From positions 68,820,001-68,884,000 of the forward strand of contig OX597826.1 of NCBI GenBank assembly GCA_951406725.2: DNA of 64,000 nt, read 5' to 3'. The notes beneath the pieces were generated by a model. The model was not told where the DNA came from, ran no database searches, and saw only the letters and a list, made by a program, of their open reading frames with translations. Positions 3,449 to 52,925 of the stretch are shown here, piece after piece. Made by a program: the position numbers and the translations under genes. How positions within the stretch are numbered: position 1 is the stretch's first letter; every line of letters begins with the position of its first letter. Source of the DNA: Octopus vulgaris (taxonomy: Eukaryota).

Positions 3449-4326
3449 CAGGGTCTTAGAAAAAATTTGATATCATTTCGCAATCTAATAACTTAGCGAG
3501 TTCTTATTGAAATGACTTCAAATTTTAACAGCGTGTGTAGAAACAGGTCAAAACGTTATATGTATTGTTTGTTATGTTTATCTTATCAGGTATAGAAATT
3601 GCATTCACAGGAAGAGGAAAAGGCGTTTTGTGTGTTGGTGTATGCTCGAACACAGTTGAACAAGACTGTGTTGTGTGCATGATATAGTTCTCTAAAAAGT
3701 CACCAATAGCAATTCAGATTTGGACATGGCACAAAAAATTCAAAGAGGAAGGCTGTCTGTGGAAGGCAAAAAAATCTGGACGACCACTAACATTGGAAGA
3801 GACAGTTGAGCGGGTTCCTAAAAAACTCATGCGATGCTCCAAGAAGTCCATAAGAAGAACAAGTCTGGAACACCTGATTCCTCCAGCGACAGTTTGGCGC
3901 ATCCTGAGGAAACGCTTGCTAATGAAACCCTACAAACTGCAGCTCGGTCAGGCCATAGCGGCAGATGCCAAGCGAAAGCGCAAAAATGGGGGAATTTGAA
4001 GGGCTTGGTCTATGTCCCCAATCTTCCTGCAAACCTACAGGAACTCGAGCATAACCTCACTACCACACTGGAGAATATTATCCAAGACATGCTGCAACGG
4101 GTTTGGGAGGAGCTGGACTAAAGACTTGACGTATGCCGTGTCTCGGGTGGTGCGTATATTGAACATTGCGAAATCATTCAGGGAATCCACATACCTTTGA
4201 ATTTCTCATTGGAGGAATAAATCTTATGTTGCTCAACATTAAATCTTTTTAGTTTCATTTGCTTTCACAATTTAGTTTCTGTGATATTTACATCTCAAAT
4301 ACTATCAAAATTTTTGAAACTCCCTG
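3449..4326 (+). mobile_element. Internally deleted Tc1/mariner-superfamily transposon (DUF4817-like HTH transposase remnant)
   Basis: TA|CAGGG...CCCTG|TA with ~30 bp imperfect TIRs. N-terminal remnant (WHKKFKEEG...SGRP...KKSIRRTS...TVWRILRKRLLMKPYKLQL) is fused to the C-terminal WG..KGLVYVP.LPANLQELE...QRVWEELD. Confidence 0.85.
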
Positions 4327-4462
4327 TATATATATTACATTATGTGCTTACTGTCTTACAGTAAAGCCACACGCTGGAAAAGGAATGGCGACTTGATAAA
4401 ATCTTATATTTATTTGATATATATATATATATATGTGTGTGTATCAATATATATATATATGT

Positions 4463-4504
<42 letters not shown>

Positions 4505-4522
4505 TATTAGAGACAAAACCAC

Positions 4523-4633
4523 TATTTTGCAAAACAAACAAGGAAAGACTTAATCAATACATAAAATTTTAATAAATGACTATTTATTAAAATTTTATGT
4601 ATTGTAGTCTTTCCTTGTTTGTTTTGCAAAATA
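4523..4633. repeat. Near-perfect palindrome (~52 bp arms, 4-nt loop)
   Basis: TATTTTGCAAAACAAACAAGGAAAGACT...AATAAAT gact ATTTATT...AGTCTTTCCTTGTTTGTTTTGCAAAATA. Confidence 0.9.
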
Positions 4634-16084: not shown

Positions 16085-16172
16085 TTTGGAATAAAACCAA
16101 TGTTGTCTTCGAAACATATGTCGAAAGTAAAAGTATTTGAATAGCATCTGCGTTCAACTCTATTAATTTACT

Positions 16173-16264
<92 letters not shown>

Positions 16265-16279
16265 CACATATATATATAT

Positions 16280-16661
16280 ATATATATATAAACGGCAGTT
16301 TGTCTGTGTGTGTTTCTGTGTGTCTGTTTGGTTGTACCCTCACTCTGACCACGGCTTTCAACCGATTCTGATGAAACTTGACACACACATAGCCCAATGT
16401 CATAATTCAAAACTAACGCAGCGAAAATTTTGAAAAGTTCCCCCAGTTCTGAAAAACATCGATAAATTCGACATGGGGTCGACAATCAGAAACACAAACC
16501 ACAGATGGTCTAGGGGACGCAACTCGACCTTTTTAACTATCAAAAAAAATTTACCATAATTTTTTTTCCCATTTTTTTGCTATTTTTTGGCTATAACTCT
16601 CTAACAATGCTTTATAGTTATTTCCCTTACAAACCCGAGCAACGCCGGGCGATACTGCTAG
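16280..16661 (+). mobile_element. Non-autonomous Helitron, second subfamily
   Basis: Same 3' hairpin CCCGAGCAACGCCGGG and CTAG|T end; 5' end lost in (TA)n; different interior. Confidence 0.8.
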
Positions 16662-32335: not shown

Positions 32336-32965
32336 GTTCGGCATAGCACCAGAAATTATCAGGTGAAGCACAAAGTTGATTTACAGCGAGCCAAGCACTT
32401 AACTGATACTTATCTTATCGACCTCGAAACAATTAAATGCAAAAACCGACCACAATGCAATCGAACGTAGAAAGTCGGAAGAAATACCACAAAGTATTTT
32501 CTCTGATACTCTTAGAGTTCTGCCAGCAAACAGTCTTAGAGTCCGCAACAATAAATAATCTGATAAAAAGAAATTTTGCTCCTTCCACCACGTTGTATTA
32601 GTTTCAAAGTAAATTATTCCGTAGTTGCATTCCGTTCATATAATTAAGACTATATATCATGGGGTTAGAGTATCGCAGCTTTCGTCAGAGCAATACTTTA
32701 AATACATGCTACTGAAAATATCTATTATTCAGCTTTGGAACCATGTTTTATTTATGTAACCATTCAACGTAAATATATTCACAGGTACGTTTGAGAGGTA
32801 CAGTCCACTGTTGTAATTAATTCACATACACACATATACGCAGATATACAAACGCAAAGAGACTCACAGGCACAGACACACAGGCACAGACACACACACA
32901 GATGTACAGGTATAAATACACACATATATTCACACATATATATATATATATATATTTATATATAC

Positions 32966-33027
<62 letters not shown>

Positions 33028-33140
33028 GTGCACACATATATGCGTATGTAGGTATATATATATATGTATGTTTTCGTTCTATTCCTTGGTTCTGCAGTTG
33101 TTGTTGTTGCGGTTGTTGTTGTTGTTGTTGTTGTGTCCAG

Positions 33141-49715: not shown

Positions 49716-51184
49716 GCCCTGCTTGTGAGTTCTATAAAAAGAACCATAAACAGTTCAAATTATCTTTGTGAAGATATCAAAACATTTTTTCTTTTTTTTT
49801 TTAATCTTTTGGAGAGATTTGGAACGGAATAATTACATCATATTGTAACAGATCTCTTATTATATTCTGATACTTTCATACATGTACGTACATATACATA
49901 TGTGTGTATACACACACAAACACTTACACACACATACACACAGGCACACACATATATACATATATATTCATATATGTTGTTTAATTGTCATACAACTTAA
50001 CATTAATGTGTTTCTATGTGTGTGTGTGTGTGTATATATGTGCCAGAAAGCGTTCGCATATTTTTTAGCATGCTGTGTATATATATGTATGTGTTTGTGA
50101 TTGTGTGTGCTGGTCTCTTGTGTATAAATGATACTGTAGTGTTAAGTTTGTTTATTGTATTTGGAATTTAATTACAGTGGAACCAAAATATATTTCGTTT
50201 ACTGTCAAACTTTGACCTCTGTAGAAACTGACCTTTCCACCCATTGAATTAACGGAATAAAAACAAAAAGCCGGAACGAAACATTTTCATAAAAAAATTG
50301 AAAACAAAAAAAATAAACACACGCACACACACACACACACACATACGCATATATACATACATACATGTTATATATATATACATATGTATGTATCAATAGA
50401 AATTAAATTTAGAAATTTTATACACATCAAACTCATGCACATTCACACAGAAAACCTATTGTCACAGATAAACACTTACAAATAGACACACACAAACTCA
50501 CGCGTTCACTCTCATACACACACGTTTACACATACAAGCAAACATAAAAATGCTACAGGAATTCACAATTAGCGTCAAGAAAAATAACGTTTTCGCTGAA
50601 ATATCGTTTTCCGTCGTTTATTTCTTCCATTAAAAAATATATATATATATAACATTCCCCATTTTCATTAAAGCAAGGTTTCATTTTTTCTTTTTTTTCC
50701 TGTTGCACTTAATTACATTTCTTCCCTTTCTCCCTTGAACTCGTGACATGTAAAGCATTGCACTAATACATTGTAGCTAGCTAGTATAATTCCTATGTAC
50801 GTAACCTAGTGTATCTCATCATTATCTAAGATGTTATCATTTTTCAAACCTCTGTGGAGTATTTATCTTTTTAAAACATTTGCATGCTCGTAATCGTTTA
50901 GAAGTGGAAGAAAAGAAATTTAATGTTGGTGCAACAGCTTCCCGTACCTGGACAGAGACTGCTTTTCCATTTGGATGTGTGCGAACATGTTCTTTTGTTT
51001 GTGCAAATTATTATGCATGGAAATGTTAAGTGAACTTTTTTTATTCTGTCGTCATTTCACTATTTTCCTTACGCACTCTTTCTATCTGGCTTTCGTTTTC
51101 ATCACATTCTCTTCTATTTCTCCCACTTGGTCTCCCTTATATTTCCGACCCGACCTGACCCAACACTCTCTCGTATGTATCGAT

Positions 51185-51410
51185 ATGCAACATACGCGCA
51201 ACCGACAACAATAAATATACAAGCATAAATTTCCCCTTCGAAACTTCATGCGCTTCAATATATCCATAATTCACACACACAAATTCAAGAGGAAACGCAG
51301 CACATTTAAAACAATATTTGTTAGCCTAAACATTATTAGGTTCCCTCTAATATATTTTCTCCATGTAAAAGACAATTCAAAGTAAGAGGCAACCTGTATC
51401 TTATATTTGT
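51185..51410 (+). repeat. Unclassified ~230-bp repeat, copy 1
   Basis: ACATACGCGCAACCGACAACA...GTAAAAGACAATTCAAAG..AGAGG is directly repeated at 52700-52925. Confidence 0.85.
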
Positions 51411-51473
51411 TCATTTGTTGTTCTCTCTGCCTAACCTCACTTTGTGTTTATCTGTCACTGACACCGTTTAATA

Positions 51474-51850
51474 ATCATCATCATTGTTCGACCGTGGTCG
51501 AGACAATGGAATTTACCTTGCTACGCCAGACTTCACGGTCCGTAATGGCATTACCGAGGTCCTGCTGCTGGATGCCTGTATCTCTGGAGATTACATCAGG
51601 GTAGGAGAGTGTGCGCCCTCTGATATTGCGAGTAGATGGCTTCCAGAGGAGAAGAGTAGAAATTACCTCTTTTTCAGCTCTACAACAATGTCCAGCAAAC
51701 TGGACTCTCCCACCCCCCACAAGAAACGACACAGGTGGTAGTTTTCCACATATTTGCACCCCGGTTGGATGGCGCCTCCACGAGAGACCCCGAGCTCCCA
51801 CAAGGAGGCGGGTGCAGGCTCCATCCAACCGCCCCCAAGCCTCTTTGGCA
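51474..51850 (-). mobile_element. 5'-truncated RTE-clade-like LINE 3' end
   Basis: RVQFAGHCCRAEKEVISTLLLWKP...GRTLSYPDVISRDTG...DREVWRS...* followed by a (TGA)n tail. Confidence 0.88.
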
Positions 51851-52057
51851 CCGTTTAAAGCCGGCTGATAAACTTTGTCAATCGTGTCTTGGTTTCTCCA
51901 TTATCACAGCTGTGTATCTTTCTTTATATATTACTCAATTCATTTCTGTGTGAGAAATTGGCAACGCGTCGGTGAGACTCCAAAGTATCAAGTTACTGAA
52001 CCAACCTAACTAAACTACAGTCTGTCTCTCTTTCTTTCTCATATCTAGGTTTATGTA

Positions 52058-52120
<63 letters not shown>

Positions 52121-52699
52121 ACATACACTCACATACACGTACGGCTTCCTCTGATGAACGCAGGGTTACATAACCGAACTGTTACCTAACACTCCGTTGA
52201 ACCTCTAGTGCGAAACCGACTGCTAAAATCAGCCTTAATGGATATATGACACTATACACTTCGATTAATGTGTGTGCGTGTATGTATTTCACATTTGTGC
52301 ACACATACACGCACTTATATTAATTAGTCCACATTTGCTTCAGCAAGTTTGAGAATTCTACTACACTGGTATCCAGCTGCTCACAACAAAAATAGTTGTA
52401 AAATAGAGTGGATCGGACTAAATGCTTAAAAGTGTTAATGATATATCTACAAAGCGTAAGGTTAATTCCAACTGAGCTTAAATTTGCTGTGGTCGGTGCA
52501 ATAAACACCAATCATTTAAAGTATTATAACAGTGACTGCACTTGTCTTTTATAAATATGTGTTTACGTGACTAATCTTCCGCTTTTACACCATACTACCT
52601 TTCTTCCTCTACTAACATGCGTCCTTATTCATATTCTCTGGTGCAAATAATCATCATCCGCTCAACACAAGCCCTGCACACACAAACTCGTTTATATGG

Positions 52700-52925
52700 G
52701 ACATACGCGCAACCGACAACAGTAAATGTACAAACATAAATTCCACCTTGGAAACTTCATGCGCTCCAACATATCCATAATTCAGACACACAAATCCAAG
52801 GGGAAACGCAGCACGTTTAAAACAATCTTTGTTAGCCCACATCTCATTACGATTCCTTCTAATAACTTATCTCCTTGTAAAAGACAATTCAAAGCAAGAG
52901 GTAAACTCCGTCTTATATTTCTGGT
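52700..52925 (+). repeat. Unclassified ~230-bp repeat, copy 2
   Basis: Diverged direct copy of 51185-51410. Confidence 0.85.

Follow-up and report, generated by a model that had tools for sequence, protein, structure and literature searches.

A-to-G hyper-editing has been described in the avian retroviruses Rous-associated virus as well as avian leukosis virus (Felder 1994; Hajjar and Linial 1995), where, according to a review, it was attributed to ADAR, and the same review puts the share of adenosines changed in ADAR-edited retroviral RNA at 'nearly 50%' (PMC12925331). Footprints of APOBEC 'DNA editing', rare strand-specific hypermutated copies fixed in genomes, are a second related phenomenon (PMC4866542, PMC3880073); among lizard L1 elements, 85 of 32,872 copies were reported as edited (PMC3880073). 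Genome screens for edited retroelements have been aimed at this APOBEC type of G-to-A change (PMC4866542, PMC3880073, PMC2873906) and were not built for an A-to-G signal. In the available text of one of them only alignments dominated by G-to-A (not A-to-G) were kept, and invertebrates were called devoid of such editing (PMC4866542), while another sought G-to-A and used C-to-T as control (PMC3880073).

At the level of RNA, ADAR hyper-edited clusters are known in repeats from RNA-seq data (PMC5625713), including squid repeats (PMC9068888), as dense A-to-G differences in which, among invertebrates, an upstream G is depleted and a downstream G weakly preferred (PMC5625713, PMC8586724). These are RNA-only differences from the genome, whereas the changes described below are in the DNA. 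Editing of repeats in cephalopod RNA has been reported by authors who call a role against transposons unexplored (PMC9068888), and a 2016 review, writing on Alu, considered it 'not yet determined' whether ADAR mutates moving retrotransposons (PMC4982230). Human L1 RNA in cell culture, as far as the accessible text of these reports goes, showed no A-to-I editing with ADAR1 or ADAR2, and the two proteins restricted L1 without catalysis (PMC5224506, PMC8677026). A full-text literature search, with subscription journals mostly outside its reach, as were supplements (in the case of PMC4866542 these may list further types of mismatch), turned up no paper that describes ADAR-type patches in LINE copies of the germline, the available text of PMC5974252 and PMC3409221 included. 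The words 'editing' and 'ADAR' are absent from the main text of an octopus repeat annotation (PMC13282606).

The window that we have analysed is a stretch of 64,000 nucleotides of octopus DNA. On its minus strand it contains a 5'-truncated copy of a non-LTR retrotransposon (377 nt, 51848-51472) situated between the two copies of a 10-bp target-site duplication, the 5' one at 51849..51858 (reading TTAAACGGTG on the minus strand) and the 3' one at 51462..51471 (also minus strand). The whole inserted copy (51472..51848) corresponds to the last about 380 nt of a 3.26-kb LINE with a single APE-plus-RT ORF and ends in a short (TGA)n tail. It thus has the hallmarks of LINE insertion, namely 5' truncation, a short tandem 3' tail and a target-site duplication. 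A Pfam search of the window fragment itself matched no domain. The insertion region has on each side one unit of a 164-nt direct repeat, the two units being 86% alike (window 51183-51346 and 52694-52857).

The conspicuous feature of this copy is a patch of A-to-G changes on the sense strand of the element (51711..51841, minus strand), which falls beyond the RT domain, in the C-terminal end of the ORF. In a comparison with 29 family copies, 22 positions at which the majority has A were G in the window copy: one at 51849, which belongs to the target-site duplication, 20 between 51841 and 51711, and one at 51565. With a larger set of 106 family copies, from which 42 polymorphic columns were left out, 20 of the 37 family As of the patch were G. 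The other differences there were one T-to-C, one G-to-A and one C-to-T substitution, and the loss of one base in a G run. In the unedited sequence 3' of the patch, as far as the stop codon of the ORF (51481..51710, minus strand), a single A of 60 was G, so that the patch has a sharp 3' edge and the changes are clustered inside the copy (p 6e-9), and the background in unedited copies is 152 of 22,363 As (0.7%), against which the patch has a binomial p of 6e-34. The remaining divergence of the window copy, 9 changes in 368 nt, is ordinary for the LINE family.

A preliminary description of this DNA had noted, from the letters alone, G-rich motifs on the minus strand (starting at 51839, 51795, 51765 and 51720) and a 5' stretch of about 155 nt poor in A next to a 3' part of normal composition, and had quoted a translation of the minus strand. 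The motifs are where it had placed them, the translation matches the sequence, and the A count is 25 in the 156 nt of 51695-51850 versus 47 in the family majority, with 59 in the 215 nt of the 3' part. The five codon changes that it had explained by A-to-G alone (Y to C twice, N to G, K to G and R to G) are all real. It had also predicted that the family would have As where the window copy has Gs and that the substitutions would be biased to A-to-G on the sense strand; both expectations held, with 20 such changes against three others in the patch.

The family behind the copy was sought in the genome of the same animal (2.8 Gb, 227 contigs), where the window copy had 892 candidate matches. The 39 other scored ones were 90-91% identical to the window copy, compared with 97-98% identity of scored family copies to one another. 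The source is a young repeat family. By exact motif counts, 2,679 of its copies could be recognised at one place, and 5,438 by a motif nearer the 3' end (one mismatch allowed). A full-length member, L093 (L093:2186-5445, on G000:C2 at about 61.73 Mb), is 3.26 kb long and has an uninterrupted ORF of 1,049 aa with Pfam matches to AP endonuclease (PF03372/PF14529) and RT (PF00078) only, and none to domains of LTR elements. A single ORF with these two domains and no other Pfam match identifies the family as a non-LTR retrotransposon, which we provisionally take to be RTE-like from the single-ORF anatomy; its Atlas protein matches were generic RT proteins. The octopus RTE-clade LINE RTE-2_OV is likewise a young family with a single ORF containing AP endonuclease and RT, although it is described as having 1,109 aa, a zinc finger and UTRs of about 600 nt (PMC9115989), whereas the 1,049-aa ORF found here runs up to the (TGA)n tail and leaves hardly any 3' UTR, a contrast by description and not by sequence.

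Some other traits of the family were evident in the retrieved copies. L097 is also full length with a broken ORF, and lies between the arms of a 378-nt inverted repeat (92%) that belongs to another element (L097:119-488 and 4243-4618). Internal tandem duplications of 3' segments were seen in several copies (L142:412-1746, L148:1488-2260, L155, L156, L160, L127 and L128), L142 being made of five pieces, four of them of about 232 nt, and L148 having five extra units of 45-49 nt; perhaps they derive from template jumps of the RT or from later slippage.

One way to account for the patch would be that the 5' part of the copy comes from a G-rich sister subfamily, by chimera formation or gene conversion, or that the Gs are an artefact of assembly or polishing. 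That many G positions are common to different edited copies (13 of the window copy's 20 are shared with the copy L035, see below) is what a sister subfamily would produce. Nevertheless, a genome search with just the patch gave no other match above 85% (40 scored of 579 candidates) and a diagnostic GG motif, made of two of the patch Gs, was present in only two of 2,679 copies, indicating that the patch is not a subfamily trait. Moreover, the sets of Gs differ among the edited copies and the changes strike residues kept by the family majority. As to an artefact, which the preliminary description had itself named as a danger, DNA contigs of two runs from different studies, X1 and X2, span 51685-52050, that is, the whole patch plus unique flank, and match the patch letter for letter, with one differing letter each, in the flank. 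X1 is possibly the assembly's own sample, while X2 belongs to a different study, of another year. That contigs of two studies have these Gs next to unique flank shows that they are no product of polishing, in a check that covered the window copy only and used assembled contigs, which drop rare variants, instead of raw reads. We consider both versions of this explanation largely refuted, with hardly any probability left to them.

The history of the insertion could be followed in other runs. No joint of an empty site was found in X1 and X2. In X4 and X7, compared over 51300-52050, the empty site is present, with a joint (51461>51849) that skips 387 nt and at which 10 letters fit both sides. X4 is from organism B; X7 bears the label of organism A, as X1 and X2 do, yet its flanks are 5-9% different and most of the differences are common with X4. 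The empty site in the lineages of X4 and X7 makes the insertion a germline one, younger than that split. At 51872-52018, X4 had two haplotypes, with 1 and 8 differences. Among the 18 flank differences relative to other runs only three were in the direction of the patch, from which it follows that the patch stops at the edge of the element. In RNA runs the share of words matched was 0.00-0.10 only.

The window copy is not the only one of its kind. The preliminary description had suggested a scan for similar copies in the genome, and five more copies with sense-strand A-to-G patches were found: L035 (39 of 66 As), L064 (55 of 129), L071 (14 of 36), L136 (26 of 50) and L137 (33 of 59). Over the six patches, 39-59% of the As are changed along 124-436 nt. 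L035, L064 and L071 were found with edited queries, while L136 and L137 came from a motif built on an unedited copy, at a place without any known edited copy. In all, 136 copies were examined, of which six have 10 or more A-to-G changes in 150 nt and two more have seven. Querying with the edited L064 and L137 gave no new strong copy among 29 and 28 new loci, and two weak ones only. The weak candidates, L140:1493-1903 (9 A-to-G and no other transitions) and L141:1265-1743 (7 A-to-G in 150 nt), may be lightly edited or may represent a tail for which the search selects. With six strong copies in a family of at least 5,438, the frequency is about 0.1%, as a lower bound. In the four copies that were compared the Gs form different sets, the backgrounds are those of at least two subfamilies and any pair has 0-2 other variants in common, so these copies represent separate events.

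Patches of other types were sought in the same 136 copies. None was found for T-to-C, G-to-A or C-to-T, with maxima per 150 nt of 5, 6 and 6, respectively, so that the sense G-to-A cluster that marks an APOBEC footprint was absent from all of them. This sample leans to A-to-G over T-to-C, being mostly fetched by A-to-G-edited queries. Paired motifs searched through the whole genome at three places, as an unbiased test of the strand, gave 1, 2 and 0 matches for A-to-G and 0, 0 and 0 for T-to-C; this is the expected direction, but the numbers are small and the three A-to-G matches include one already known copy. The pair without a match for either change was one placed upstream. All six patches are A-to-G on the sense strand of the element, and the copies sit on both genomic strands.

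Evidence for the signal in other repeat families was sought in an all-against-all comparison of 477 kb of locus flanks together with the window, a small sample (75,408 usable positions after polarising), and none was found. Nine clusters were left after polarising: the four that were inspected are misalignments of (TA)n/(TG)n/(CA)n microsatellites, and the five others are clusters of 8-10 changes of other types. The many pairwise runs of a single mismatch type in other repeats (in locus flanks and in the window at 16105-16281 and 32824-33062) were also, where inspected, microsatellite misalignments. Such misalignment is a trap for genome-wide A-to-G screens in this genome.

The uniform strand bears on the idea that the changes arose in DNA after insertion, for example through a deaminase, ADAR or a different one, that attacks the DNA strand in an R-loop, or through repeat-targeted hypermutation. 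ADARs do deaminate DNA in DNA:RNA hybrids in vitro, according to the review cited above (PMC12925331). Mutation of this kind should nevertheless strike either strand of the element as well as its flanks, whereas the six patches are all sense A-to-G, the T-to-C controls gave zero, and the flanks and both copies of the target site are unaffected. If instead the first-strand cDNA were edited within its hybrid, the result would read as T-to-C, which is not seen. We regard an origin after insertion as very improbable.

The letters next to the changed As bear on the underlying activity. Pooling the six copies, the edited share depended strongly on the 5' neighbour: 51/71 after U (0.72), 87/124 after A (0.70), 24/90 after C (0.27) and 25/92 after G (0.27), with p 7e-7 for the depletion of G and p 9e-18 for U/A versus C/G. 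At the 3' side no preference for G was seen in the pool (41/85, p 0.8). The preliminary description had predicted a depletion of 5'-G neighbours, which appears only in this pool; taken singly, the window copy offers too few sites, and its counts (U 4/6, A 10/15, C 3/8, G 3/8) are not significant. The substitutions inside the six patches were 187 A-to-G versus 34 others. The patches therefore present a single type of change, on the sense strand, in a dense and bounded cluster of about half the As, with U or A preferred and G disfavoured at the 5' side, which is how ADAR clusters look in sequence. The pooled 5' context fits the invertebrate hyper-editing motif (PMC5625713), and the density of 39-59% matches that of ADAR-edited retroviral RNA (PMC12925331). 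Exons for the adenosine-deaminase domain (PF02137) are present at four loci of the animal's own genome, as identified at the level of the domain and not of the gene (ADAR1, ADAR2 or ADAT1).

Two details of the context count against ADAR: a 5' C is disfavoured as much as a 5' G, and 27% of the sites with a 5' G are still edited. Polymerase eta has WA as its motif, and the pooled preference for W over S, with C equal to G, resembles it. This equal disfavour keeps alive an explanation without RNA editing, in which DNA synthesis at the insertion was error-prone, either as a polymerase-eta-like synthesis of the second (sense) strand or as LINE reverse transcription under dNTP imbalance. The same strand and the confinement to the element are also what such synthesis predicts. 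The conversion of 39-59% of As at a purity of 187/221 is, in contrast, far above polymerase error rates, and the sharp-edged interior patches of L035 and L071, clean on both sides, look like the footprint of a duplex. Error-prone synthesis is thus improbable in our judgement, if somewhat less so than mutation after insertion.

Taken together, these observations make it very probable that the sense A-to-G patch goes back to ADAR hyper-editing of double-stranded template RNA, after which the LINE RT copied inosine as G into a germline insertion. The core of the preliminary description, a hyper-edited LINE RNA reverse-transcribed into the germline, comes through the three refutations that it had named (the family has As, the change is A-to-G on the sense strand, and the Gs are in the DNA of two studies); the enzyme and the double-stranded partner are what we infer. 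The exceptional ADAR activity of coleoids that it had named is not needed for this reading. A duplex of roughly 120-440 nt would have formed between the donor LINE transcript and either antisense RNA of one of the other near-identical copies, which number more than 5,000, or an inverted copy present at the donor locus, and ADAR would have deaminated about half of the As of this duplex. The edited RNA would have kept a usable 3' end, from which target-primed reverse transcription could insert it in a cell of the germline or early embryo. The 5' truncation of the window copy would be of the ordinary kind. The copy is dead and without evident host function, a fossil of one edited RNA molecule.

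With regard to the duplex, a hairpin of the element itself was considered as a sufficient ADAR substrate. The 3' 546 nt of the element fold well in prediction (z -3.6), with a stem-loop that overlaps the patch. Edited As are, however, less paired in the prediction than unedited ones (0.23 versus 0.47 in the window copy; p 0.002 when four copies are pooled), and inverted repeats inside the element reach no more than 38 nt at 71%; on these grounds the intrinsic hairpin was rejected. An inverted partner at the insertion site was rejected as well, since neither the 64-kb window nor the surroundings of the other five edited copies, out to about 5 kb, yielded a second member of the family. Edited As that are less paired, no long internal inverted repeat and no nearby copy point to a partner that was likely external, at the donor stage. 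Candidates for it are the antisense RNA of a different copy and a copy in inverted orientation next to the donor.

The ends of the edited copies deserve a separate comment. Four of the six end within 3-13 nt of the first edit, and the preliminary description had taken truncation at the edited segment as a hint of restriction linked to ADAR. We found no support for this. L035 and L071 extend past the patch for another 654 and 175 nt, respectively, showing that the RT reads through the edited stretch, and unedited copies are truncated in this region at about 0.3 per 100 nt (20/67 and 15/47), a rate at which ending inside a 200-nt patch would be, by estimate, roughly an even chance.

The patches appear to work like the retroviral cases and to mirror the APOBEC footprints. 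As in the avian retroviruses, about half the As of a limited stretch became G in an element that is reverse-transcribed, and ADAR is the attributed enzyme (PMC12925331); the LINE case differs in being non-LTR and germline-fixed, in comprising at least six independent insertions and in having no inverted repeat in cis that we could find. With the APOBEC footprints (PMC4866542, PMC3880073) it shares rare, strand-specific, hypermutated fixed copies at a similar order of frequency (0.1-0.3%), but the change is A-to-G instead of G-to-A and the substrate was, we infer, RNA and not cDNA.

A wider proposal is that germline ADAR edits retrotransposition-competent LINE RNA and restricts the element by catalysis, inosine recoding the ORF and raising RT drop-off, with the rare survivors as a datable genome-wide fossil record, the RNA counterpart of the APOBEC footprints. 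We put this forward tentatively and think it rather unlikely in this full form. The fixed edited copies are the most direct sign that hyper-editing of LINE template RNA can leave it able to insert and to hand the edits on to offspring. As a read-out of ADAR activity in the germline, and of its motif, they are inexpensive and need no more than a genome, and any assembly can be scanned for them. Since the edited copies are rare, dead and without known effect on the host, they are to be seen as a fossil record of editing in the germline and not as a route to the adaptive inheritance of edits.
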